64,000 nucleotides of DNA from assembly GCA_030295235.1 (NCBI GenBank), contig AP026138.1, positions 186,001 to 250,000 on the forward strand, written 5' to 3'. Made by a program: the position numbers and the translations under genes. The DNA is from Fistulifera solaris. Taxonomy: Eukaryota. The notes under the pieces are model-generated. The model saw nothing but the letters and a program-made list of their open reading frames with translations. It did no database searches and was not told the origin of the DNA. Positions within the stretch are counted from its first letter, which is position 1. Every line of letters starts with the position of its first letter. Shown here piece by piece: positions 5,107 through 50,421 of this stretch.

Positions 5107-5756
5107 TTTGTTTCACTGTTAAAAAATAAAATAATCCGCGAACGAAAGAGAAACGACGGGAAATTGTGAGCCGATGAAATTTCAATTCAGTTCGAAAAGG
5201 CATGAAATTATCTGCTACGCGATTTCACACAAGCTTGTTGTTGCTATCCACAGCTTTAGCAAGCGATGAAACGAACTTACATTATTTTTCTTTGATTGAT
5301 AAATCTACAACGAGTTCAATAGCAACACCATCTTGATGCTTCGTTTCGAGGCGGTTTAGTAAATCGGTAACTCACCAACGGGTGAAGACAGACGCTGCGC
5401 GCGTGGTGCGCGCGTGAGAGATCAAGTCCCGATACTTCTGGACTGGCCGCTGGCCCGCGCCCAGAGCCAACGGACAAAAACGGGGTCATTTCATTCGTTG
5501 CGATGAAAAGTTCCACGTGTACCCCTTTACTATGACGAATTATATGGCGAAATAATTCGATTTTACGGAATGATGCAAGACTTCCTCGTGTAAGTAGACC
5601 ACAGTACATGTTGCACGATACACTCGAACAGCGCAAAGGATCCGCATCATCGCATCCTTTCGGCGAACAATAAAACACCCTCGGCATTGCCTCGTTTGTA
5701 TTGCATTCTTGTGCATCTCCTCTAATATCTATTAACCTACAATACTAACAATAATC

Positions 5757-7020
5757 ATGAAGTTTTCGCAAGCTTTGTTTTGTTTAGTTGCGGCCGTCCC
5801 TGCGGCTGCGGATGTTTTCATCAAAGAACAGTTCAACGATGAGGTACGTCGTCGTCGTTGTTCCTTCGGTCCATCTAAAAGAGGACTCGCTAATCTCTCA
5901 CTATTCTCTAAAAAAGGCATGGAAGACTCGATGGACCGTTCCGAGCAGCTGGAAATCGAAAAGTGAACTCGGAGAATGGAAACACACCGCCGGAGCTTAC
6001 TTTGCGGACGAGAACGATCAGGGCATTCAAACGTCGGAAAATCACCGCTTCTACGGTCTTTCCGCCAAGATGGATAAGCCGTTCGTCTCGGGAGACAAAG
6101 AGCTGGTCATTCAATATTCCGTTCGACACGAACAAAAGTTGGATTGCGGAGGTGCTTACATCAAGTTGCTGCCCGGTGGGGATGCCTTTGATGCCGACAA
6201 GTTTGGGGGTGATACGCCCTACGCGGTCATGTTTGGTCCGGATATTTGCGGATCGGCCAACAAACGAACGCACGTTATCTTGAATTATCCGGCGAAAAAT
6301 GAGAACTTGTTGATTAATAAAGAGATTCCGCCGGAAAAGGATAATCTTTCTCACTTGTACACTCTCGTGATTCGTCCCGATAATACCTTTGAAGTGTTTG
6401 TTGACAACAAATCGGTTCGATCGGGCAAATTGGAAGACGAATTCGATTTCTTGGAACCCAAGCAAATCAAAGACCCGGATGCCAAGAAGCCGGCGGATTG
6501 GGTGGATATCAAGAAAATCCCCGACCCTGAGGATAAGAAACCGGAAGGTTACGACGACATTCCCAAGGAAATTCCGGATCCAGAAGCCACCAAGCCGGAA
6601 GACTGGAGCGACGAAGACGATGGTCAGTGGGAACCTCCGATGATTGATAACCCTGAGTACAAGGGAGAATGGAAGCCAAAGATGATTGACAATCCTGAAT
6701 ACAAGGGCAAATGGGAACATCCCATGATTGACAACCCCGACTACAAGTACGACCCCGATATGTACAAGGTATGCAAGGATGGTTGCACGCATATTGGCTT
6801 TGAATTGTGGCAAGTGACGGCCGGCACCATGTTTGATGATATCCTTGTCACCGACAGTCTCGAAGAAGCTCAAAAATTTGGTGAAGAGACGTTCTTCAAG
6901 AAGAAGGATGCCGAGAAGGCGAGTTACGACAAGTTCAAAGAGGAGGAAAAGAAGAAGGAGGCGGATGAGGAACCGGAAATCGATCTTTCGGATTTCGACG
7001 GAATGGGCGATGAGTTCTAA
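5757..7020 (+). CDS. CALR: Calreticulin, intron 5844-5916
   Basis: Signal peptide, DCGGAYIKL, MFGPDICG, P-domain repeats (IPDPE..KPEDW, IDNPEYKG.W), acidic tail ending GDEF. Confidence 0.95.
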
Positions 7021-7152
7021 GAACGTGAAAAAACTTTTCCCTCTTTCATCGGCAATCTCGCTCGGTAGTCTTGCCTTTTGATTTTTAATAGCGCAATTAC
7101 ACACTTGTACGCTTTATCTAATTAAAAAGCAAAATAGAAATTGCGATGGTAT

Positions 7153-8682
7153 TTACGATCCCCTCGTTGGAGGTGGAACCAGCAAACGACCTCGTCGCGA
7201 TGCGGTTCGACCCAGTTCTCGTTCGGATTCTTCCAAACCGTACCGACGGGCAATAGCTCCAAACCAACTGACCGTTTCCAGAACAATGTTGCCAACTCCC
7301 ACAACGGCAAAGAGAGGTCTTTCATCTACGTGTTCATTCGGTGCGGTCGGCGAAAATCGAGACAATGCTTGTGATCCCGCCCCATCGATGCGGACTTTTC
7401 CCGACTGACGATCAAATCGACTGTCTGGTTCAGCACTCTTATTCTCCACCACCGCTGTCACATACTCTAATGTATTCGTTGCAAAACTGGCGTCGCTCTC
7501 TTTCGAGAATGCGGGTGACAGTAACTGTATTTTCGTTGTTGTCGAGTCATCGCTCTGTTCTTTGGTTGGGTTGTCGCATAACTGTTTCAAAATTTTACCA
7601 ATCATTTCGTCGTCGTCTTCTTCGGCCAACAGACTTCCCGTTTCCAGTAACGTTTCTTTGGCTTGGAGACATGAAAGCAGTCGAAGATCCGCCGCGACTT
7701 TGCGATCCACAGTAATGGCAACATGACCACTATCCGCCGTCACAAGGCTAACACTCCCCGCCGATAAACTGTCAACGTGTACCTGGCAGGATACCCAGTT
7801 GCTGTCGCTATAGGACGACGATTCTTGTATTGATACTTCGCACTGTCCATTGACTCCTCCCAATTCAACGATCGGATACTGCATCTGAGTAAATTCATTT
7901 CGTTCCGTGGGCCGAGGTTGACCATTCGCTTCAATCAGAACGGGCCCGTGATTGGATTTGATTCGTACTGCTCGATGAGAAAGAGTACGACGAGGATGAA
8001 CTCGGATGCTAGCTCCACTCCCAGCATCGTTGCCCGTCGAAATGAACAACGCACTGATATCAACGAGTGATTTTTCATCGTCCGGATCGTCGACGGTGTG
8101 CTGGCGGGGCAAATCACTATCGTGTACTTGAATGTCGGCCTGTGAACAATGAACTTGTTTGGCACGGAAGCGGCCCGTAGATTTGACGCGGAAACGAGCC
8201 GCTTCGACCAAATCCTCCACAATAATGCTATGTGCTTTCAAATCAATGTCGTGCCCACGTAGTTTCTTGGCATGTATCGCTCCATTTGTGTTCAGTGCCA
8301 CATCTCCTTCGATTTTTCCGGGAATCGAAATGAAACTCCCTTCAGCAAATAAGCTGCAGCTGAGATTGATTTTTTCGGGTACTTGGACGGTAATCTGCGG
8401 TAAGGAATTGTTGGTCGGAAGGAATGTTGTCAAGGCGGTGAGTGGCTCGACATTGACCGATATGTGAGGGGCTATTCTTCCTATTGATGTTTGTAGCTCT
8501 GTTTCACAAACGTCTAAGCGGATGCTGCTGTCTTCGGAATAAGAGATGACACCATCATCTCTCCATTCGGGTTGAAAAACGACCGAACAGGGCACATGGG
8601 AACGAAAGGTAAAAGTCGACCCTTGTGAAAGTTGCGCTAAAGATTTACGTATCAAATGTCGTGCGATGGCATTACTTGTCAT
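7153..8682 (-). CDS. Hypothetical protein, possibly mitochondrial FAM185A/DUF4097 (adhesin-like beta-solenoid) family
   Basis: 509 aa uninterrupted ORF; basic amphipathic N-terminus; ITVQVPEKINL and IPGKIEGDVALNTNGAIHAKKLRG resemble DUF4097 repeats. Confidence 0.5.
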   Translation of the reverse strand: MTSNAIARHLIRKSLAQLSQGSTFTFRSHVPCSVVFQPEWRDDGVISYSEDSSIRLDVCETELQTSIGRIAPHISVNVEPLTALTTFLPTNNSLPQITVQVPEKINLSCSLFAEGSFISIPGKIEGDVALNTNGAIHAKKLRGHDIDLKAHSIIVEDLVEAARFRVKSTGRFRAKQVHCSQADIQVHDSDLPRQHTVDDPDDEKSLVDISALFISTGNDAGSGASIRVHPRRTLSHRAVRIKSNHGPVLIEANGQPRPTERNEFTQMQYPIVELGGVNGQCEVSIQESSSYSDSNWVSCQVHVDSLSAGSVSLVTADSGHVAITVDRKVAADLRLLSCLQAKETLLETGSLLAEEDDDEMIGKILKQLCDNPTKEQSDDSTTTKIQLLSPAFSKESDASFATNTLEYVTAVVENKSAEPDSRFDRQSGKVRIDGAGSQALSRFSPTAPNEHVDERPLFAVVGVGNIVLETVSWFGAIARRYGLEESERELGRTASRRGRLLVPPPTRGS

Positions 8683-8824
8683 GAAGAAGCGTTGTTCGAC
8701 GTTAGAAGTTCTTTGTTCGCTTTTAGATCCAAGGAGAGCAACTTTTTTTATTGCTGGAACGACAAATGAAAGAATTGCAACGCAATAATGAGCTGTTTAC
8801 TGTTTACTGTACTATCAGTCCATT

Positions 8825-10890
8825 GTGGTCAATAAGTTGAGGGTGTCGAAAAACCAGGAAATTTACCTGACATTACCAGACTTGAGTCTCTCTGAAAAGT
8901 AGGGCACCGGTACCGAGTACTCTCCTAGTATGGTTGAAATGCAGTGTAAGGTGAAGAGATCAATTTTGTGGTCAATAAGGTGGAAGTGGTGAAAAGTCAG
9001 GATCCCGCAAATCGCGAACGTGTCACTGGTCGTCTCGCTTATTCATTAAGTTCTTTCTCATGAACTTTCATCGCCCTCGAAGAAGGAAAAAATACTTGTA
9101 GCCGTTCAACTTGTTGTGAATAAAGAGACAACGTGACGACAAGAGGAGAATTTGACGCTGGTTTGGTTAAAAAGAATCAAGTATGGAGTCAGTATACAGA
9201 CTACGATCGACACAAGAAACGTTTCTTGGTCTGACCAGATGCAACTCTTTTTGGCCAAGGAATTCGCCAAGGCCTAATTATTGCATGCTTGCTTGTTGCC
9301 GGTGCAGAGTATTAGTTGCCTCAACACATTTGTGTCGTGTTGCGAAAACGACGGAACAATCGGTCAATTAAGCTACCAATCCTTGCGAATGGAAAGATAA
9401 TGGTTGCAAAATAAAAACGAAATCTTGCCCATTGTTGCAACGCATGCTCTAGTAATTGAGCTCGTCTAGTCGGTTTAATGTGAGCCGGGCTAGACCTATC
9501 ATCGTCTTGAACATGTGTCGATTATGGTCAAGGAGTTGAGGGTGTCGAAATTTCCTGGCTTTTCACCGATGGCAGAAACTCGACACTACTTTGTACGCTA
9601 TACTATCAAGAGGAGGAAGTGGTCAAGAAGTTGGTGGTGGGTGAAGGGGGATTTGGAAAGTCGAAACGGGCGTCCGTGTCAATGAAATTGTTTTTTCATG
9701 AAAAGAAAAAGTCCGTCGAGTGTGACCGCGATCAGACCAAAGGATCGATGAAACCAGTACACTTTTCAATCATTTCATTTCTATAAAAGATAAAAGAACA
9801 AAAGATAAAAGATTAAGGAATTTTGGAGAAGGGCATGGCTTGCTTTCGCTAGACTGATGACAGAGAACATGTGTAACGGAGACAACCCGCGACAATGACT
9901 GGACAATACGCGAGATGCACGATGCACATCGGGCATCGGTGATGAAAAAACAAAGAAACCAGTCTTTTTAAAACTAGTGTGACTGACATGCCATTAATGA
10001 CGTTTTTCATTTGAGGGATATGAAATAGCGCTGCTCTTGAACCAATGACGATCCACTCCATTTCGTAAAGCGTCTTTTCTTTCTTTCGGGATTCAGTTGC
10101 CTTTTTGTTTATGGTACGTGGTCCTTCGAGCAAATGCGGCACGAAATGCTTCTACCTGGCACTATGCTATAGCGCCACACTTTGTACATATTCTCCATTC
10201 AGTAACTGTTTCAATCAAGCTGCTGTTTGTGCGGAGGAATGCAATTCTTGTCGTAAACCTCCATGTTGAATTCGCAAGTAAACCCAGAGTAAGGGCCGTA
10301 CCAGGTACCTCTCAAGGCTTGACAAAAAGCAATTATAAATAAAACAATGGCATCTATCACTTAGCTGCTAAGTGACTGGAGTAGGCTGGCATGCAAGCAA
10401 AAGAGATTGAAGAACGAATGAGAGCAATTATTTTCAGCGGGATCCAGCGTGGTCAAGAAGTTGGAAGCAAGGTTGAAGTCAAGAGGTCCATTTTGCAGGG
10501 GTCGTTCGAGTCATTGCTCCACTTTTTGATCCATACTACGTACATTGGAAACGAAATGACCGCATACAGCCCAGTAAGGTTAAGGCTACTGTAAGAGCTA
10601 AAAGCGCTCTTTTGTATCCCATCACTTATCAATTCAATGCATTATTTCCGCTTGTTCTTGATGACAATCAAGCGTCAAACCAAGACCCACTAATCAATTC
10701 AATCCATTATTTCCCCTTTTTCTTGATGACACTCAAACTCAAACCAAGACCAAGAGCTCAAGCTCAAGCTCAACAGTTCCAAATTCCCGGTTACCGGTTA
10801 CCGGTATTTAACGGTGGTCAGTGGTCAATGAGTTGGGAGTGTCGACTTTCCAGGTTTCCATGAAAGTGGAAAGTCGACATGCCAGGAAAA
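8825..10890 (+). repeat. Dispersed direct repeats of a composite motif, consensus GTGGTCAAnrAGTTG, six copies
   Basis: Copies at 8825, 8968, 9525, 9619, 10449 and 10821, all on the + strand. Confidence 0.8.
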
Positions 10891-11128
10891 TCTATCCTCA
10901 TCACTAGTCGCGTTAAAAATTGGTAGTAAAAAATGCGTGCACATCGCGTCGACGGCGAACCCAACCTTCATTCGCATTCTGATAAAAAACAATAAACAAA
11001 CCCACACGTTGGGCCTCTACATTCTATCCCTCGTTTCCTGTTTTGCTTCCTCGCAGAACATGATCCACTGATACCGCTGCTGGTACCGCTATTAGGCTCA
11101 AACCGCTTGGCGAACGCAAAGACACAAA

Positions 11129-12251
11129 ATGTGTGTACTTCGACGACGAAAGATCGCGCACCTATTTTTCGCGACGATTGTGACATGTTGTCGAGAGGTA
11201 GCAGCGTTCCCAACAACTCTCCCTCCCGTATCCAAATTGAAACAATGTCGCGGCTGGCAATCGGATGCTGCTTTGTGTCAGTCACTCAGTGACGGAGACG
11301 GTAATCTCAACGACAATAACAAGGATACTCCACAAGTCGTCCTACAACAAGCCACCGTCCAAATGACATCAAATTTCCAGCGATCTGTACTCTTTTCCAT
11401 CGGCATGACACTAGCGGGGGCGACGTTGGGACCCTTTCTGGATACCTATCACTCGACATTTGGAGTTTTGCACTACGAACATCCCATTACGGCGGCCTTG
11501 TGGTCTCGGCCGATCCCGCACTCATTACCGCCTGGTGGGTTCCGGAATTGTTTGGAGTGGCGGGCTTTTGATTGGTTGGCTGTACATTGGATTGGATGCG
11601 GGATTGTCTTCGTCATCGAAACGTCCGTCGGTGCCGAAAATACTCGTGGGAATCTCATTCTTCACCTTCCAGTACTGGTTCTCCGGAGTCCTCGTGGCGA
11701 TGGGAGTGGATCGTGTGACGATACTGAATATTATGTCCGCTATGGCAGCCATTGGTTTTGTCGCATTGGATGGAAGTCTGGCGGGCCTGGTGACCAGCAC
11801 GGCCACGGCGGTCGGCGGGCCTTTGATTGAAATTGGTTTGCTGTCCTTGACGCGGGCGGGCATGTTGGGAGAAAATGGCTATGCGTACACCGATTTGGGT
11901 GAAACGGGCTTTTTCCCTCTTTGGATCTGTCCCGTTTACTTTTTGGGGGGACCCGCCAATGGAAATTTAGCACGCGGGCTTTGGAACGCCATTTCAGAAC
12001 GTTTAGGAATTCCCGCTGAAGCATTGCCGAACAAGGGAGTTGACTGCAAGGTCTGCCAAAATACTCGCACAGTTCCTTGTCCGAATTGCGATGGAACAGG
12101 TGATTACATTGCGATGGGTGGTCGCAGAGTGTCGTGTACTTCGTGTCGCGGTCGAGGCTTTGTCATTTGCCGCGATTGTTTTGACGAGTACGGCGAAGAC
12201 CCCTACGACATTGAAGCTATCCGTGAGAAAATGTCCCGAATGCCGGACTAG
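11129..12251 (+). CDS. Plastid-targeted INSIG-like membrane protein with C-terminal DnaJ-type Cys-rich zinc finger; frameshifts ~11505-11570
   Basis: Presequence VAA-FP; GATLGPFLDTYHSTFGVLHY, GGPLIEIGL and FPLWICPVYFLGG; CKVC, CPNCDGTG, CTSCRGRG, CRDC. Confidence 0.65.
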
Positions 12252-12417
12252 AGGCACTCACATTGAACTCAAAGTTTTGCTGCTATTTCTCGAAATTTAA
12301 CCTTATTTTACAGAGAGTGATTTAAATGTATGTAGAAGAGTGCTTGTTCTCGTAGTGAAATGTACGTTGATTGACTCGTTGGGAAATACGATTAGCGGTT
12401 TCTGCAGGAGAGAGATC

Positions 12418-13177
12418 TCATAAGCCTGTGTCGTTCCATGATGTAGAAGTAGAGAAATTCTGTTGCGTGTCAGAATTGTGTTGCAGCTGCCTGCCGTCAA
12501 CACCTTGTTGCATTTGCTGGAGGAGCGTTCCAAACTGGTTGGAAGGATCTTGAGCGAGCTCTTGAGGAACGGCTACCATGTTGTTGATGCCCTGTGTCTC
12601 GCCGACTTGTTGGTTGCCTTCATACACGGGAGCGGCAGAGGTCATGCCCCGAGGTATAATATCGATCAAGAAATCGAAGGTCTCGTCTTCCCCGACCGCC
12701 GCATGAATGTCGGCCCGTTGCAAGGTTCGACGTCGGCTCCTCTCGGTATGTTGCCAAGCACGAATGGTGAGCTCTTTAATCATGAGTTCGCAGGCCTTGG
12801 TCACTAAAACGGGGGCTTCCTGAGAAATCATGAACTTCATTTTTGTCGGTCTCTTTCCAAGGGAGCCCCAGGATTCGCTTGCCTTTGGCGTTCGCGCTCC
12901 AACTCTTGTGCAATGAAGTCTTCGCTTTTCATAATTTTCTTGATTCTTGCGAGCGGGAGCGACAAATTCTTCCAGTTTTCGGTTTCTTGAGAATCGCGGG
13001 AAGGGAAGAGATGAAATCTGTGAGACTATTATTATATACCTTCTATCGTCGAAACAGCATGCTTGACTTACTTGGATCAATTTGTTTGATCTCACGTACA
13101 GCAGCATTCCACACATCATCCAATGTCACTTCATTTTCGATCTGGGAAGCTGCGCTATTTTCATCATTTTCGTTCAT
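12418..13177 (-). CDS. NFYC: Nuclear transcription factor Y subunit C (HAP5-like histone fold), intron 12986-13071, frameshift ~12855
   Basis: Splicing gives [13 protein letters not shown], followed by [26 protein letters not shown]...RRTLQRADI...FDFLIDI. Confidence 0.85.
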
Positions 13178-13753
13178 CTCTTCTTGAGTTCTTGTTTCGC
13201 TTTGCGGGCGTTTTATTCTAATTCTGACTCTATAACTCTCATTAATCACTTAAAGTCTTCGTCCCTCGGTCGTTGCTTCTTAAACGCCAAGGGAGCGATC
13301 AGTGTTTCGATTTCACTTGACGCTTCAATGATGATGGACGGCAGAGGTTGCGATGATTGATTGGTTGATGTCGATGGGCGATACAACAACGGAGGAGAGG
13401 TGGTATGTTTCGTACGCCCCCCCGCCAACAGCTATCAATGACCATGTGTTTCGGACTTGCGCGCATTGACGCACGAATTACAACGTGACGTTTCTTGTTC
13501 TGTAAATCAGCCGTTGGCTGCGGAAAGACGTAGGAACATTATATACCGCTACGAAATTGGGTTTCTGTTCTCTGCCGAAACGTGAAAGAAATTGCATATA
13601 CGTACGTAGTACGTACAGTCCCGCCAGCTATCAATTGTGAAAACCGAGTAACTCAGGGTGAATCATCATTCGTCATCGACATTTTTCATTCATTTTCATC
13701 GTTGTGTGACTCCGGATTACCGAAAAATATGCGTCTCTGTGTAAAATCTAAAC

Positions 13754-14972
13754 TTACAAGTTCAACAGAGTTTTTACCATAGAATCGGCGATGTAATCAA
13801 CGTCGTCTATGCTGACCCCTAGATGCGTAACTACCCGAAATAATTTTCCGCCTGTGGAGTATCCGCCTGTTATCTTGATGCCGTATCCTTGTTCAAGTCG
13901 CTTACAGTATTCGCTTTTTGACTGAAGCACACTCTCTGGCAAGGAGAAGTAGAATATGTTTGTTTCCACTGCCCGAGAGATCTGAAATCCATAGTTTTCG
14001 AGTTTTGCTGCTAACTGCTTTGCAAAGTAATGATCCACTGATAAGCGCTCGACATTGTTTTCAAGAGCATACAAACCCATTGAAGCTACAACTCCAGCCT
14101 GTCGCATACCTCCTCCACATCGCTTTCTAGCCCGTTTCGCTAATCGAATGAACTCGTTATCACCAACCAAGACACTCCCTACTGGGGCTCCCAGCCCCTT
14201 GGAGACAAAGGGAGACGCTGTCAGCACCAGCACACAGCGAAGCTATAGATACGCCTTGGGCAACGGCTGCATTCGCTAATCGAGCTCCTGTATCATGAAG
14301 CAATGAGTGTAATGATATGTCCTCCCGAAAAATATAAAAATATTCATTGTACCTACCATCGACGTGTAATTTCAGTCCCAGTTCACGACAGATCGAACTC
14401 ATACCTGCCATGTACTCGACGGGTAAGGCTACCCCACCTAGCATATTGTGGGTATTCTCCAAGCACAGAAGCACGGTCTTGGAGCAATGGTCGTCACTGT
14501 CATCTCGAAAAAAGTCGCGAATATCCCCTTCCGAAATTTGAGCTGTTTCTCTGTCCTCAGGTAGCTGACGCGTGTGAATACCTCCCACGATAGCTGCATT
14601 CCCACCTTCCCATAAACTTATGTGGGACTGTGCACCGATCATGACTTCCGCTGCTCGATCGTACAGGCAGTGCGAAGTAAGAGCCACAAGATTCGCCATG
14701 GTTCCGGTAGGAAGGAAGAGACCGGCCTCGAAGCCTAACATGTCTGCCACATATTGCTGTAATTTCTGAACGGTTGGATCTTCTCCCATCACATCGTCAC
14801 CGAGCGGCGCGTTCAATGAGTACTTGATCATTTCTGGGGAAGGCAAAGTCACCGTATCACTCCGCAAATCAATAATGCGACGTGGAGATGATGACAATTT
14901 TCGACGACGGCAAAGCGACTTGCGGCGCAGCTGCTGCACAACATTAGCCAGCACGGATCTAGTAGTCTTCAT
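13754..14972 (-). CDS. ltaE: Low-specificity L-threonine aldolase, intron 14288-14356, frameshift ~14200
   Basis: DLRSDTVT, GDDVMGEDPT, PTGTMAN, LENTHN, HVDGARL, SKGLGAPVGS (PLP lysine), GGGMRQAG. Confidence 0.92.
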
Positions 14973-26915: not shown

Positions 26916-28789
26916 CAAGATTGGCTTAGTAGAAGACTCTGATGCAGCCAATGCCATTGTCCAGTCACGGATTTTAAAGCTTACTGGAGAAGACGCTGCA
27001 GAAATTCACGCTGAAGACGACAACGAAAATAACTATCTTCTGGATATGGACCTTGCTCCGTCAGGTAGTAACCGAGATATTGTAGTAATTATTCGTGACA
27101 AGGATTACACGGAAAGAAGAAGTCACGAACAAGAATTGACCATGGTTGATGATGTCGAGGTAGGCATCCATGACGATTCCCGTCTGAACAGTGCACACTC
27201 GGGTCATCTGTCGACAATTCTAGAGGATGAAGATGTGGAACCAAGCACCGCACATAATGCTTTTGCCTCAAGTCCCGCAACAACAGAATATTCAGTAAAT
27301 GAAATGCCAACAACTAGAACAAAGAGGAGATCCAAACAAGTAAACGAATTTAAAAGCATGAAGGCAAGTCCATCTACCGCCAAAGTCATCGATATTGAAG
27401 ACAGCGACCGCATCCAGACCGAATTTGAAACCACCGCCGACCACAACAGCTTGTGCTTCCAGTCCAGCAACAACAGATTTTTCATTAGTCAAAATGGCAA
27501 CGAGAAAGAGGAAACGGCCGAAACAGCCACCAAATCAAAAAGCTGAAGGAACAAGTCCCGCCACAACTGATTCGTCAATCTTTGAGAGGCCGACCATGAA
27601 GAGTCAAAATCTGAAGCCACCACCTGATATCAGAGCTCATGCCTTGACTATCGAGTCTTCAATGAATGAGAATACAACACAAAAAAGGAAAAGATCGAAA
27701 CTGACAGCAAATTCCAGAGCCAAAGGCCCGACTCATGCCCGTAAAAAGAAGTTGAAACCGCCACCGATTGCAGAAGCAAAAGCAGGAAGTCCCGCCACAG
27801 CAGTTTCTTCCATAGTTGAGATGCCAACTATGAAGAGGGGTAATCTGAGAGCACTGCCAAGATCTCATTCGAAACAGTCCAACAACCGAAGTATCACGAT
27901 TCCTGAAGATATGATTATAAAGATACCGAAGACAGAACCCACTAATGCAAGTCCCGCCACGTCTGCTAGTGACGATTCATCACATGTATTTAAAAGGCGA
28001 TTAGACATCCAAAAGAAGAATGCAAGTCCCGCCAAATCCGGTAATCTCAGTGACGATTCGTCGCATTTCCTGAAAATGCCGCTAGATCTGCGAAGAAAGA
28101 ACTTGGCACAAAATGAAGCTCTCAAGTTCATTTTCAGTGGGTATTCCGAAAACCAGAAGAACTTCGTGAGAGCTATAACAAGTCCCGCTACTGCCACTAG
28201 TGGGACCTCATCACAATTCTTGAGAACACCCTTCGACCTGAGACGTAAGATTGTAGATCCCAGAAATGAAAATCAATTTTCATTACGTCGACAACAAGTA
28301 AGGCAAATTGGAGTAGCCCCTTTGCAACCCCCAGTCATTACTGATGAACCATCAAAGATCGTATCCTATTTTTACGACACAGCTTATCCATTTGTGGGAA
28401 CCATTGAGCAATTAAATTGTTTGGTTCAAGAACACGAGTTTGATATTCCAGAATCATTTCACGGAAAGCGGAAACAAATGATTTAACGATGAAAAGAAGG
28501 GCTTCAACCCAGCAAGGGCGCAAACCAGCGAGGACTTGTGAGTGAGAACAATATTGCAATCCACGTGCGCGGAATACTCTTGCAGAGACAGCAAAAGGAA
28601 AGAAGTGGAATAGAATCATTTATCACTGTAGGGACAAGAAAGAATGGAAACGATCTGATTTACAACAAAGAAGATGCCAGGGGATCTCTTCGGTCACTCC
28701 TTTTTGCAATCCAGTGCAAAGGGCGTTGATAAAGGTCGCGGAGTCGTCCACGACCTGAAGAGGGAAAGAAGCATCATATCAAGGTGCTA

Positions 28790-31972: not shown

Positions 31973-34900
31973 ATGTCTGGCTACGGAACTGGTCAGTTCA
32001 ACGACAACGCAGAGATGCACGCAGAAATGCACGCGGAGCTTGAACGTCTTCGTCGTCAACAGCAAGCCGCGACTTGGTCTGCATTAGCAGCAAGAGCTCG
32101 GCAGCAAGGCTATCCTACAGCGTCACCTGCACATCTTGGTTTGATGGGTGCTGCGGACGCTTCAGCTTCGTACTACGCTCGCGCTCCTGCTTACGCCCGA
32201 TATCCGGGATTGTCGGATCCTGCGTACGGAGCACGAGTGCAAGCCGACCAGAACCAGCTGGCACAGCTCCACCATGCCGTTTTCGGAAGACAACCTGCTG
32301 TCCAGCAGCTGGCAAGCAATTATACATATGCAGCTCCGGCTGGAGCTGTGACTGGGTACGCAGAGACTGCTACACCTACACATCGATCGCCGCCTGCAGA
32401 ACAACAAAGGTTTCCCTACGGTCTCAACTCGGGCACTACCCCTTCTCCGGCATCGTATGATAACTATGCATCCCGTAACTCCTACGTTAGTCCACCGAAA
32501 CCAGCGCCGAGTTCAGCTTCCGCACATCGTCCTCCAACTTCTACTTTGAGCTCCACCAAGGTCCCAGCGAAGTCTACACCCAAAGCAAAAGCAACCCCAG
32601 GAAAAAGCCCTGCCGTAACTCCCGCCAGTTCCAAAACTACTCCGAAAACTCCCAAATCAGGAAGTAGTTATGGCAGTAGCATGTCTAAGGCCAGCGAGAA
32701 ATCGAAAGAACAAAATACGCAAAAGCGTGTCGCGACGAGTGATGGCAAAATCCTTGTCGATGGGAAAGAAACTTATTATTCGGGACATGTACCTGTCGGT
32801 TTTGACGAAGACAAATATTGGATCTCAGAGCTACAGGTGTATTTGCGGTCGCATTTTGCCGAGGCTTTTGCTGCTACAGAGGAAGATGTTGCGGCTCCGA
32901 TGCATGGTCGGAACAAGCCGATTGTGTTGGGACAGGTGGGAATTCGTTGTATGTACTGCAAAGGTAAGATATCGATTCATTCTATGTTGCTCTTTATGCC
33001 TACTCTAACTGTTCCAATAATGTTCTGCAGGAGATAATCCAGCCGAACGAGGACAGCAATCGACCTCGTACCCCAGTCAAATAAGTGGCATCTATAATTC
33101 GGTGCAGCAAATGCTGCGTCTTCACCTTGATTGTTGTCTTTCAATGCCTGCTGAAGTGCGCTCGAAGATAGAATTTATGAAAGAGTGTTGCAATAGCCGG
33201 GGTGGCCGCAAGCAATACTGGATTGAGGCGGCAAAGCGCCGGGGTTTAGTCGATACGCCAGATGGTATCCATTTTGGACGTGACCCGTTGGCACCATTGC
33301 CAGATCATGTGGGCCCCTCGGTGACAAAGGACGGTCGCCGAAAGCGTGTGATCAAGACTTCTGAAGAAGCTGTTGTGGTTCCCTCTCAAGAACTTCCGCC
33401 ACCGCCTCCTCCTGTTGACGATAGACCTTTGGTCTTCGAGGAAGATCGTTCACTCATTAGTGATTACTTGTATCTGACACTGGAGCAGATGGCTCCGTGT
33501 ACTTTAATGGAAGCAGATCGGGTTGGATGCTACAAAACCCGCAAGGTTGGCTTTCCTGGTTTAGCCTGCAAGCACTGCGTGGGTCAAGCTGGTTGTGGTA
33601 GATATTTTCCTGCTTCGGAAGCTTCGCTTTCACAGACAACCACTTCACAGACCATCATGAATCACGTTCGCAACTGCCGTCGTTGCCCTACCGAAATTCG
33701 CGAGAACTTTGAAGTCATGAAGCGCAATCGTATGGGGCCTGATGGGAAGCGCGCTGATAAACCGAAACATGGCGGGCGCAAGGTATTCTTTCATAGATTG
33801 TGGTGCCGCATTCAAGGCCTGGAGATTCATGAAGAAGAAATAAAACTCGATGACACTACGCCTAAAAGGAGGAAGCCTTACGCTAAAAAGTCGAGAAAAA
33901 GATCATATGATAGCGACGGTGAATCCGGTGAGGACGACGGCGAAGTAGTGACTTCCGAGGGTGAAAGTGACTCGGAGGCCGAAAGCGAGGCCAGCGATAA
34001 GAAATCCCAAAGACGTAAATCGTCCCCGGGAAAAAGGAAGCCGGAAAAAGAATCTTGGTTTGAGGGATGTGTTCGCCTCACCAAAACAGACGACCCACAT
34101 TGGCTCTCTGAAATGGAATGTTTCGCCAGAAGCGATCTCGTCGAATTATTTAGTCTCGGCAATGAGGATGAACTTGAAAGTTACACCGGTAGAAAGGAGC
34201 CAGCAATTGGGCAAGTGGGTATTCGATGCGCCTTCTGCAAGTCACTTCCGCCTCAAGATCGGCCCGCTGGGTCTGTCGCGTTTCCGGAGTCGCTCCCAGC
34301 AATTCATTTGAAGGTGACAGACATGATTCGATTGCATTTTCCAAACTGCCCATCGCTGTCAGACGAAGCAAGAGAAACATTTAAGTCGCTTCGTGGCTTT
34401 GATGCAAAAGTAGCTAGCGATGATGCGCAGCAGTACTGGGTCGATGCTGCCCGTGACATTGGATTGGCTAACTTTCCAGTGGATGGAAAGAGCGATGCTT
34501 GGGGAATTGCTTTCCGGCGTGATCCCCTTCAGCCAAGTCCTGCAGATGAGTTAGATCTTGAAGTCGGTAACCCGAAGGATGTTTCCAGCAAAAGCTCACT
34601 TGTCAAAATCGACGATAGGGGATTGTGCACTGATCAAGTAATGCTACTACTGCGCCAAGTCATTCCCTGTCGCTTCAAGAAGAGCGACCGCCGTTCCGGG
34701 CCCGGGTACCGGGGTAGAGATAGGTCTATGGGGTTCCCTGGCTTGTCGTGTAAGCATTGTGCAGGGAAGAACACTCTGGGTCGATACTTTCCAGTATCCG
34801 CGAAGAACATGACCGATTGCACAAGCAACTCTTTACATACACATATTGCCTCTTGTGCTCATTGTCCCGAACCCATTCGCGCTTCATTGGCGTATCTTGG

Positions 34901-35381
34901 CCATCGCAGCATCCTCCAGAAGGCGGAACTCCGAGGATGCTGGAAGAAAGCATTCTTCAGAAAGATTTGGGATAGGTTGCATGTTGAGCGTAAATGGATA
35001 TCGGCTGATGACGGAGCAGGGCCTTCTAACATGAAAAATGATGAGCATATACACGGAGATGATGATGTGAGCGAAGATGGTGTAGAAGGCGGCGGGTCTT
35101 ATGATGACGATGATGTTGGTGGGGAAGAGGATGACGACGGTGGAGAAAGTGACAGCGACAAAGAGGAAGAACTTGGAGATCAGATGGAAGCTTTGATCAA
35201 AGCCGCGGCAATCTGGCTTACTGAACAAGATGCTGTCACGGATTCGGCTAGGGCAAACGCTCGAGCGTCAAAGCAGCAATCGCGTGCTTTGCCTTCCAAG
35301 AGACCAACAAGCGGCAGTAGCTCCAACCGCGCTCGAGGAGAACAGAGCATGCCAACTAAAAGGAGGCGTGTGCACTTTTGA
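31973..35381 (+). CDS. Large nuclear protein with four Cys/His putative zinc-binding modules, intron 32964-33030
   Basis: Splicing joins ORFs 31973 and 33102 in frame; GQVGIRCxxC x2 and GFPGLxCKHC x2; basic NLS-like stretches. Confidence 0.8.
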
Positions 35382-36020
35382 AGGTGTCACTGAATTAAGA
35401 TAGCTATCGCGGTGTCTCTTTAACAACCTCGGAAAAGCAGGGAGACACGAGAGGAGTCGACAACGCCTTGGTGCATAATCTCTCAAAAGAAGGTGTAAGC
35501 TAACTGTAGTAGGTGACATAACTCAAATGGAGTAATTTTAATAATTTGGGGTATTTTTTTTAATAAAAAAACCTAGAGACATCATCAAACTTTTTGATCG
35601 TTGTTGATTGCATAGTCATTACCAACGAGCTGTAAGGATAAGGATAACCGTCATTAATGACCTAGAAAAGTCATTGTCGGTCTTGTTTCATGCACTATTA
35701 CTAATGTAGTAACACTTTTGGGTTACGTCGTTAATCGTAAAAACTGAAAGGTTAAACTAAGGTCTAAGCCATAATGTACAATTTATACCGAGTGATATAT
35801 ATGTAACTCTGAATAGTACATAGCCTTTCAGTTGGCACAAAAGATCTTTTCCCTTTCCCGCACTCGCACGGACATTCGAAACGGAGCAGTCATTCTCGCG
35901 TTGTTCCTCGTGCCTGCATTGATCTGTTTGAGATCTCTCTGATAGGCATCTTGAAAGGAGAGAGATAGCTTGAAAGATATTATATACTTCACAAAAGTCT
36001 ATAGTTTCCTTTAGTTAACA

Positions 36021-36322
36021 ATGTCGGATTCTGATGATAGTTCGAATGCCGGCCCGACGGAAGAAGACCGAAAAATGAAAGAGATGCTGGCCGAATGGGA
36101 TGAAAAAGATGACGACGACGATGTTTACGAAGACTCGGACGACGATGAGGATGATGACGCTGCCAAGGCCAAGAAAATCGCTCTATTGAGTGCTGCTGCC
36201 GACTCTGAAGAAGAGGAAGACTCCGATGAGGAGGAGGAAGAAGACGATAAGGGAGACGATGATGACGAGGAAGAAGAAGACGAGGAGGAGGAAGAAAGTC
36301 AGGAAGAGGAAGTAGAAGAAGA

Positions 36323-36357
<35 letters not shown>

Positions 36358-37568
36358 AAGAAGAAGAAGAAGAAGAAGAAGAGGAGGAGCAGCCGGCGGT
36401 AGAGGAAGAAGAATCTGAAGAAGAGGAAATTCCAGTTGAAAAGAAAAAGAAAAGACAAAAAGGAGAAGAAAGAAAAAAAGGAGAAGAAGGAAAAGAAGGA
36501 AAAGAAAAGTAAGAAAGACAAGAAGAAAGATGTTGATTCCGACGATGAAGATGATGAAGCGGATGAAGAAGAAACTGTGAACAGAGGTGAAGAGATTGTA
36601 GATACCCTGAAAAAGAAACCCAAGAAAAAGAAAAGAAAAAGGTCAAGACGAAGAAGATAACGGATGTGGACGAAGACGACGATGAGGAAGCCATCAAGAT
36701 GAAGCAAATGATGGCAGGTTGGGACTTGAACGGAGATGATGACGATGACGACGATGATGAAGATGCAAGTGATGACACCAGTGAAGAGAGCGAGCGTGAA
36801 GTCATCCTTGACGACAACGTGCTCGATCACATCGTTCTTGCCGCACCTGACCTCGACGACGCAATCAAGGAGTTCAAGAAAAGAACTGGGACCGAACCAG
36901 TCATTGCTGGAACGATCAAGGGTCTGGGTATCAAGTGTGCACGTGCCTCTTTTAATGATACCAGCTACATCGAGATCATTGCCCCGGATCCAAAAGGACC
37001 GGGTCCCATTGGTGAACTTCTCAAGTCAAAGGCGATCACTGAGCTGACTCCTTTCCACTATGCCATCAGATCATCTAAAACTGAGGCTTTGAAGGATGAA
37101 GTAAGCCAATTTGGTTACACGCCAGACCATATTACTATGTTTGGAGCTAAAGCTGATGGTAGTCCGCGCAAGTGGGAGATGCTGTACTTGTACGGCCACA
37201 AGATGGGCGGTATCTGCCCCTTCTTCATTAACTGGAACAACTCAGACCACCCATGTGCTACGCTCCCGGTTGTGGGCAAATTGAAGAAGTTTACTATTCG
37301 CGCTCCTGAAGGCGATCCTGTACATGAACTACTTGAGCACTCTGGTGTTGACTCTATCAATATCGAGACAGGTAAACCAAAGATTTCTTTTCAATTTAGC
37401 AGTGCGGAAGGAACAGTAAAGTTCTCTGCTAGCAAAGCCGTTGGGTTCAAATTCCCTGGCTTCGAAGACGAGGACGGAGAAGATGTTAGTGATGAAGACA
37501 TCGAATTCGAGTCTCCAGCTGCGCCGGAACTTCTTCCTGTTGGAGATCTCGATGATGATAGCGAATAA
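36021..37568 (+). CDS. Glyoxalase-like (VOC, Glyoxalase_3) domain protein with long acidic and KKE-rich N-terminus; frameshifts in A-runs ~36440-36660
   Basis: LDHIVLAAPDLDDA, SYIEIIAPDP, PFFINW; poly-D/E tracts and KKE repeats in three overlapping frames. Confidence 0.7.
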
Positions 37569-49431: not shown

Positions 49432-49676
49432 GACAAGCAGGAAAGATAATAAGGAAACGGTTTGCGAGTGAATGAAGGGTAAAGTTCAGAGGTTCTTATG
49501 AATTATGGCTTTGTCTCTCTAGCAGGAGCGCAATGGTGTCATTGTCGATGCAACCAAGATGCAACTGCACTCGCGCTGTCTGGCCCGTCGTCGGCTTGGA
49601 TCAGTTTTGCTCCTCTCTATAGCGCATTATGGTTAAACGTTATGGATGAATACGGTTTCAAGGTCAACGTTCAACA

Positions 49677-50013
49677 TAGTGATTGCTCCTGGGATGGGAA
49701 TTTCCCGTTTCCCGGGAAATGAGATTCAAATTTCCCGTCCCGTTTCCCGCTCAAACCAGCGGGAAATAACGGGATGGGAAATCCGTCTGTTTTCGCACGT
49801 ACAAACCCCTTATTTTGTACGTGTCCGCTTACTTTCAGCACTATCACCCGTTGCAATACGGGTAGGGATAAAGTCTTTGTACACAATAGCTTATACTACA
49901 AGATACGACGTACGAACCATTTCCCATCCCGTTATTTCCCGTTCCCAGGGATTGAGGTGGCCATTTCCCGTTTCCCATCCCGGTCCTCCGAAAAGAACCG
50001 GGAGCAATCACTA
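49677..50013. mobile_element. hAT-type MITE, 337 bp
   Basis: TIR TAGTGATTGCTCC(T/C)GG; 8 bp TSD GTTCAACA (49669-49676 and 50014-50021); many TTTCCCG subterminal motifs. Confidence 0.9.
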
Positions 50014-50421
50014 GTTCAACAAGTTCCGTGTTCCGTGTTCCGTGTCTATAAAATTTAATATTGCCTTATCTCTCAGTCGGAAAGTACACATGAGTTTATT
50101 CATAGAATACTTATAGTACACTTTACTTGATACAATTGGGGCTTGATTCACGATACTCTCCTTCGTGCGTCAGCCGAAAGTACCAGGTACCGTACTAAAT
50201 AATTGGAGCGTTGTATTTATCCTTCGTCCACTCAGGACTCACAAAACTGCAGCCACTTTTCACTTTTACTCTTTTCGCCCCGACGATCTATTTTACGTCA
50301 AAATCAATATCCTGGAACCAATGATTCCAAAGATTCTGGTCGAAGGTCTTCAATCGGCAACGTGAGCGGTCTGTGCAGTATTTCCTGTTGAAATCAAAAG
50401 TCTTGTTCTACGGCTGTCATC

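Follow-up and report, generated by a model that had tools for sequence, protein, structure and literature searches.

Homotypic clusters of transcription-factor sites in promoters and enhancers are a concept that comes from animal genomics, and subterminal repeat arrays and short dispersed repeats are known from transposable elements, among them MITE-like and hairpin elements. To our knowledge, diatoms have few defined cis-regulatory elements, and a literature search found no defined cis-regulatory element for Fistulifera. Repeats of another kind occur in the centromere/ARS regions of F. solaris, which, in the accessible part of the published account, carry repeated consensus motifs spaced along the chromosomes (10.1101/2021.11.10.468027).

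In the stretch of Fistulifera solaris DNA analyzed here (64,000 nt of contig AP026138.1, hereafter the window), six copies of a short unit lie in one divergent intergenic interval. As in homotypic clusters of transcription-factor sites, several copies of a motif occupy about 2 kb of non-coding upstream DNA, the motif is over-represented, and its flanks appear unconstrained. Unlike the members of such clusters, however, these units are 37–40 nt long, contain a near-invariant 16-mer, and are strictly co-oriented, and they are known from sequence alone. With MITE-like and hairpin elements they share a short conserved unit, hairpin potential, the presence of several copies, and at least one further locus; they differ in that terminal inverted repeats, target-site duplications, and any trace of a transposase are missing, in that they occupy one strand, and in their apparently low copy number. 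Like the repeats of a minisatellite or other tandem array they are direct copies, apparently derived by duplication, but they have no constant period, their spacers are unrelated, and Tandem Repeats Finder does not report the six units as an array. The F. solaris centromere/ARS motifs, so far as the accessible part of that study gives them, are likewise repeated, 40–50 nt long, and located in non-coding regions; they differ from the units in that their sequences are unrelated, no core of theirs occurs in the interval, and the GC content of the interval is not low.

Results

A preliminary description of this DNA had listed six co-oriented copies of a first sequence box, and all of the 15- and 16-mers quoted there were located on the + strand. 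They start at 8825, 8968, 9524/9525, 9619, 10449, and 10821, with the same strand in 6/6. Matches to the pattern TGGTCAAKRAGKTGR start at 8826, 8969, 9525, 9620, 10450, and 10822, again all on the + strand; these six matches compare with 0.00 expected from 100 dinucleotide-preserving shuffles of the 64 kb window. When up to three mismatches to the 16-mer are allowed, the number of matches in the window rises to 13, where 4.64 are expected. The additional seven comprise one site with two mismatches at 8426, which falls inside the coding region of the minus-strand gene, and six with three mismatches that are scattered across the window. An nhmmer profile of the six units recovers just those six, with E values from 8e-8 to 6e-4, and finds no seventh unit in the 64 kb window (the next match has E 0.38), in agreement with the earlier statement that the full motif does not occur elsewhere in it. 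Inverted copies of box 1 are absent from the minus strand of the window at two or fewer mismatches, and are absent by profile too. The six-copy pattern is real and statistically solid.

Box 1 spans 16 nt and has the form (G)TGGTCAA-KR-AG-K-TG-R. Eleven of its 16 columns are invariant across the six copies, all variation being confined to the other five, and the mean pairwise identity is 0.85 (range 0.69–1.00). Box 2 has the form GTCGA/GGTGA-N4-YCAGG(AAA). Its pattern, GKYGANNNNYCAGG, gives seven matches in the window against 0.78 expected, and five of the seven, including one that is inverted, lie inside the interval. A reading of box 2 as a heat-shock element, built from GAA/TTC pentamers, was rejected by eye, since only c3 looks reasonable. 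All five box 2 strings quoted in the preliminary description were found, and their enrichment stands, but the variable spacing suggested there does not: in every copy, the GTCGA or GGTGA with which box 2 begins lies 20–23 nt past the start of box 1. This fixed offset implies one unit of about 37–40 nt rather than two freely spaced boxes. A variably spaced bipartite motif is thus a less apt description of the pattern than a unit of about 40 nt that is present in six copies and two subtypes.

Outside the unit, similarity ends quickly. In-register mean pairwise identity is 0.50 at +16 to +25 and falls to random level both at +26 to +99 (0.22–0.26) and in the 60 nt upstream (0.26–0.27). The drop on the 3′ side is explained in part by indels of 1–3 nt in c4 and c5 and by the inversion in c3. 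A BLAST comparison of the interval with the whole window found no similarity between copies beyond 25–37 nt, and the spacers are indeed unrelated, as had been claimed. The units c1, c3, and c6 carry GTGTCGA and form subtype A; c2, c4, and c5 carry GTGGTGA, GGGTGA, or GGTTGA and form subtype B. Along the interval the order is A-B-A-B-B-A, and the unit spacings are 143, 556, 95, 830, and 372 nt.

The individual units, all on the + strand, differ mainly in their second halves. Unit c1 (type A, 8825–8864; profile E 8.4e-8) consists of box 1 GTGGTCAATAAGTTGA followed by GGGTGTCGAAAAACCAGGAAATTT and starts 143 nt upstream of the minus-gene ATG; at the other end of the series, c6 ends 239 nt from the plus-gene ATG. 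In c2 (type B, 8968–9004; E 4e-7) box 1 is GTGGTCAATAAGGTGG and is followed by AAGTGGTGAAAAGTCAGGA. Unit c3 (type A, 9524–9584; E 7e-7) has A in place of G at the start of box 1 and is 88% identical to c1 over 34 nt. Its second half, 17 nt, is inverted in place relative to c1 (inverted pair I1, 8848–8864 and 9548–9564, 94% complementary), and the unit holds the inverted repeat GTGTCGA...TCGACAC. In c4 (type B, 9619–9667; E 6e-4), box 1 GTGGTCAAGAAGTTGG precedes TGGTGGGTGAA, and a reverse-oriented, box-2-like piece, TGGAAAGTCGAAAC, at 9654–9667 forms inverted pair I6 with 10839–10852. Unit c5 (type B, 10449–10487; E 9e-5) has the same box 1 as c4, followed by AAGCAAGGTTGAAGTCAAGAGG, and its second half is the most decayed among the six. 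Unit c6 (type A, 10821–10889) begins with box 1 GTGGTCAATGAGTTGG, whose 5′-terminal 7 nt are doubled just upstream (GTGGTCA GTGGTCA), and contains two forward box 2 copies, at 10841 and 10873, which pair as a perfect hairpin of 12–14 bp, GTCGACTTTCCA...TGGAAAGTCGAC. Reverse-oriented copies of the second half are present in c4 and c6 (pairs I6 and I7).

The c6 hairpin has a fold z-score of −2.59 as RNA and −5.09 as DNA, and the other five units, at −0.38 to +1.01, are no more stably folded than shuffled sequence. When 118 sliding windows were scanned, just two regions stood out, c6 and 9420–9540, each on both strands, and the c6 region gave the top window on both. A signal that is equal on the two strands resembles that of a DNA palindrome.

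All six units are held within the divergent intergenic interval 8683–11128, which measures 2446 nt between the start codon of a minus-strand gene (ATG at 8682) and that of a plus-strand gene (ATG at 11129). The interval had been called long for a compact genome. It exceeds five other divergent ORF-to-ORF gaps of the window (360–930 nt) three- to sixfold, and to that extent the remark holds; against it, two further gaps in the window measure 2.0 and 2.9 kb. The GC content stays at 0.39–0.46 across 8550–11100, with no low-GC trough, and GC skew on the + strand is positive over 8250–9900, the same sign as on the sense strand of the flanking genes. Between c5 and c6, at 10623–10751 on the + strand, lies a tandem duplication of 65 nt (2.0 copies, 89% identity), an indication that local duplication operates in this interval. 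Simple repeats with a period of 7 nt border units at two places, CTGTTTA (2.6 copies) at 8793–8810 and CCGGTTA (2.7 copies) at 10787–10805. Another divergent gap of the same window contains a second homotypic cluster, of a different motif, that includes TTTCCCGC/GCGGGAAA sites, which we take to be E2F-like.

The left-hand gene (7153–8682, − strand) encodes a hypothetical “adhesin domain-containing” protein of 509 aa with DUF4097-like relatives and 88% identity to Fistulifera solaris FisN_8Lh082; a protein entry identical to it (P0001) is listed as window-encoded proteins are. Searches with this gene in genome-contig and viral-contig collections found no diatom locus. The right-hand gene (11129–12251, + strand) codes for a membrane protein that has a CxxC zinc-finger region at its C-terminus, and its relatives carry PF07281 or PF23733. 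Its frame breaks near 11565 at a T run, where read run X1 has an extra T. In Epithemia clementina the homologous genes sit next to each other (ACA910_014443/014444), and in other diatom data homologues of both occur together on contigs 5508, 6578, and 28161 nt long, so this is an old pairing.

The interval had been said to hold no credible open reading frame, and this is borne out. None of its 17 ORFs (55–128 aa) exceeds the Pfam threshold, and their codon-usage scores, −0.13 to 0.16 against 0.07–0.24 for real genes, are in no case convincing. A protein-coding repeat was rejected because the units occupy different frames and match no Pfam family; likewise the minus-strand peptide (Q/H)L(I/L)DH never falls within an ORF longer than 59 aa. 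The 91-aa ORF that spans c3 and c4 has no relatives. The 128-aa ORF has as its sole match P0217, a 90-aa orphan ORF whose first 34 residues follow one frame of the window and whose remainder shifts frame near homopolymers where X1 differs. P0217 is apparently the same locus with two homopolymer indels corrected; it has no relatives, no family, and low recognition.

Searches for structured RNA were also negative. Rfam 15 gives no match at E ≤ 1 on either strand of 8000–12000, and ARAGORN finds no tRNA or tRNA-like gene in the whole window. The latter result led to rejection of a likeness between GGTGTCGAA and the tRNA B-box consensus, which we take to be GGTTCGAA. A screen for box C/D snoRNAs (RUGAUGA and CUGA, 50–220 nt apart, with a terminal stem of at least 4 bp) gave no candidate on either strand of 8683–11128.

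Three read runs, X1, X2, and X3, were placed on 5500–14500 at 90% likeness. X2 and X3 are RNA-like: they cover some genes only and contain the joint of an 86-nt intron at 12985/13072. Neither has a contig over about 7900–12100, and since this stretch takes in both flanking genes, the blank is uninformative about transcription or expression of the interval.

X1 is DNA-like, with an even depth of about 18.8. One of its contigs, of 3185 nt, spans 8303–11486 with two other letters and three indels. One further X1 contig matches only 8825–8846 and 9619–9639 and has unlike sequence on both sides. The genome thus contains, at one further place or more, an A-type unit with a B-type unit after it. The place seen here could be an unrelated locus or a diverged homeologous interval; near the N-terminus, the homeologous coding sequence itself falls under the 90% cut-off. 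Scanning of metagenomes with a degenerate 24-nt pattern gave 22 loci with a single match each, GC contents of 0.27–0.68, and no motif cluster. These matches look like chance, many lying in G-rich repetitive sequence, and one locus alone among the 22 (L014) has two copies of the short motif. A 25-nt pattern found one match in viral contigs, on the 12,568-nt contig of that same locus; the contig is unrelated, and this match also looks like chance.

The preliminary description had also proposed an origin-like array. In the accessible part of the published study, three F. solaris centromere/ARS motifs are given, and none of them is found in the interval; their cores have 1, 1, and 0 matches in the window, which is chance level, and all lie outside the interval.

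Discussion

The reading that fits best, though it can be advanced only tentatively, is that the six units form a conserved homotypic cluster of cis-regulatory protein-binding elements that arose by local duplication. It is preferred because a sharply bounded core at 85% identity stands amid flanks of random-level similarity. From the sequence we infer selection, protein binding, and a regulatory role, all of them putative. The unit would have spread through local duplication in the 2.45-kb upstream region that the two genes of a conserved divergent pair share, and the cores would have been retained while the intervening sequence diverged to random similarity. Selection may hold the cores as recognition sites of a sequence-specific DNA-binding protein, and the resulting homotypic cis-regulatory cluster may serve one or both of the flanking genes. 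In that case the shared orientation would be left over from duplication and would not be required for function.

Several features speak for such a cluster. Cores that are kept while their surroundings are randomized, together with the A-B order, are hard to obtain from neutral decay and indicate that the units were duplicated locally and then retained. The second half of the unit tolerates either orientation, which is more in keeping with a DNA site bound by protein than with an RNA motif, and tolerance of this kind is usual for protein-binding half-sites. The position of the units, between the start codons of a pair that is kept adjacent in other diatoms, also counts for a binding-site cluster, as does the presence of a second homotypic cluster, with a different motif, in another divergent gap of the window. 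The enrichment of both boxes, the invariance of 11 of the 16 box 1 columns, and the 65-nt tandem duplication as a sign of active local duplication count in its favor as well.

Other features fit less well. A near-invariant 16-mer within a unit of 37–40 nt exceeds typical transcription-factor sites in length and in preservation; in these respects the unit looks more like the product of common descent than like a member of a set of sites. Co-orientation in 6/6 copies would not be expected of sites that act independently of orientation unless it reflects a history of duplication. Variation confined to a few columns, moreover, can reflect subfamily structure instead of selection. The preliminary description could not match the motif to any known diatom cis-element, and a literature search likewise finds none: with diatoms, GTGGTCAA gave primers or unrelated matches only, and TGGTCAA gave no paper on diatom cis-regulation.

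It is possible, although we would not count on it, that the unit is a composite element particular to this lineage, kept by purifying selection, that typically works in A-B pairs and is recognized by a putative multi-domain DNA-binding reader at a few regulatory hubs. Two A-B pairs are present in the interval, and one is apparently present at the second locus. The reader would be, for example, a multi-finger or dimeric factor that spans the 16 nt of box 1 and a reversible half-site. The expanded region of bidirectional control between these two genes, which are kept adjacent across raphid diatoms, would be one such hub.

The same pattern might be a neutral relic, in which a short segment, such as an A-B module, was duplicated locally several times and the copies were not under selection. 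The cores would look conserved because they are young relative to the indels that separate them, or because of short-patch gene conversion. Co-orientation is what tandem or local duplication produces by default, and the A-B-A-B order suggests duplication of a two-unit module. The fresh 65-nt tandem duplication in the same interval and the 7-nt simple repeats at unit borders (8793–8810 and 10787–10805) are of a piece with such a history. What makes the neutral account unlikely is the shape of the conservation. On the 5′ side identity falls from 0.85 to 0.22–0.27 over a few bases, and on the 3′ side it does so over about 40 nt. If neutral decay were uniform, the 58–100 nt that separate close neighbors (c1 and c2, c3 and c4) should still align between modules, but they do not, and each of five separate insertions would have had to spare the cores.

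That the units are fragments of a short repeat, mobile or dispersed and of low copy number, which built up in an intergenic region that is long and permissive, also seems rather improbable. One option would be a hairpin-forming miniature element; another would be the 3′ ends of 5′-truncated non-LTR retroelements on the minus strand, ending ...TTGACCAC. A mobile origin is suggested by the form of the unit, with one sharp end and another that decays gradually, by the doubled terminal heptamer of c6 (GTGGTCA GTGGTCA), and by the hairpins in c3 and c6. The other X1 contig, with its two copies, unrelated flanks, and loose ends on both sides, is consistent with such an origin. Nevertheless, box 1 is never inverted in the window, so that there are no terminal inverted repeats; long direct terminal repeats are lacking, and no target-site duplications were found by eye at the flanks of c1 and c2. 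Neither the ORFs of the interval nor Pfam reveal a remnant of a transposase or reverse transcriptase. Six independent insertions on the same strand within 2 kb would be unlikely. A high-copy family is unlikely as well, given just one extra X1 contig at 90% likeness, a figure to be read with the caution that lone copies of 16–25 nt would probably escape placement. Two classes of element were rejected: a DNA transposon or MITE with inverted ends, because no minus-strand box 1 is found at two or fewer mismatches or by profile, and elements with Helitron or LTR termini, because inspection by eye and searches of the window show no CTRR end and no inverted terminal copy.

It is distinctly unlikely that the unit acts at the level of RNA, as a repeated protein-binding or processing motif in one long non-coding transcript of the + strand or in several short ones. 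Such a motif would need the strict co-orientation that is seen, and the + strand GC skew over 8250–9900 shares its sign with that of the flanking genes on their sense strand. An array of small non-coding transcription units, as proposed in the preliminary description, finds no support, however: the screens gave no Rfam match at E ≤ 1, no tRNA, no C/D-box candidate, and no fold common to the six copies. Five of the six units fold no better than shuffles, and the stable structures score alike on both strands, as DNA palindromes do. The occurrence of the unit's second half in both orientations would not be tolerable for an RNA motif.

A replication origin or centromere-type iteron array is very improbable: direct repeats within a long non-coding interval and the repeated consensus motifs of F. 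solaris centromere/ARS regions (10.1101/2021.11.10.468027) speak for it, but the three motifs given in the accessible part of that study are absent from the interval, and a GC content of 39–46% without a low-GC trough argues against it. The confidence left over from these five readings (binding-site cluster, neutral duplication, short mobile repeat, RNA motif, and origin or centromere) belongs to something else.

The unit is most likely of an ordinary kind, either a cluster of cis-elements or a short repeat, and does not represent a new category. Its present status is that of a verified sequence pattern with a putative function. Should it be a short dispersed repeat or a neutral relic of duplication, the finding would be an ordinary one. 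Fistulifera is an oil-producing strain used in biotechnology, and if the unit marks control regions, it would offer a long and easily scanned handle both for finding the factor that binds it and for promoter engineering.

Flanking Genes and Intergenic Repeats

The interval that carries the six repeat units is flanked by a divergent gene pair: on the left, a hypothetical adhesin-like gene of the DUF4097 type (7153–8682, minus strand), and on the right, a gene for a membrane protein with a zinc finger (11129–12251, plus strand), for which PF07281 or PF23733 is found in relatives. The same divergent arrangement is present in other diatoms, as exemplified by Epithemia clementina ACA910_014443/014444 and by three metagenomic or Logan contigs on which homologues of both genes occur together.

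Small repeats lie beside the outermost units. Just upstream of c1, the first copy, CTGTTTA is repeated 2.6 times (8793–8810). Just upstream of c6, the last, are a 65-nt tandem duplication (10623–10751; 2.0 copies, 89% identity) and a microrepeat of CCGGTTA (10787–10805; 2.7 copies).

Other Repeats in the Window

Another homotypic motif cluster is seen at 49690–49990, inside the divergent intergenic gap 49485–50392. It comprises at least five copies, on both strands, of ATTTCCCGT(T/C)-type motifs; among them are the palindrome TTTCCCGGGAAA as well as TTTCCCGC and GCGGGAAA, which are similar to E2F sites. Repeats at 27269–28182 and 33000–37100 are located inside long open reading frames: the first stretch (27.3–28.2 kb) has seven copies of a motif of the CAAGTCCCGC type, spaced 75–400 nt apart, and the second (33–37 kb) has long repeats of GAT/GAA/GAG that are rich in Asp/Glu codons.

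Base Differences and Diverged Copies

The window differs from contigs of the DNA-like run X1 by single-base indels at 9945, 10490, 10609, 11504, 11565, 12839, and 14201. Those inspected (9945, 10490, 10609, and 11565) fall in homopolymer runs, which suggests that the window is the product of a long-read assembly that retains homopolymer errors. An apparent frameshift near 11565, splitting the right-hand gene into reading frames 11096–11830 and 11415–12251, is probably such an error and not a true disruption. Correction of the indels at 10490 and 10609 yields an ATG-started orphan reading frame of 90 residues (10391–10663, plus strand; database entry P0217), within which repeat unit c5 would fall. 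Because this frame has neither relatives nor a Pfam family, and its recognition by a language model is low, it is probably not a gene.

In the coding regions of 5500–14500, contigs from X1 and from the RNA-like runs X2 and X3 form two populations. One matches the window exactly; the other has diverged by about 5–10%, as at 11566–11925, where 34 of 360 nt differ. Both populations are also found in the RNA-like runs. The data fit two diverged genome copies, or homeologs, each of which is expressed.
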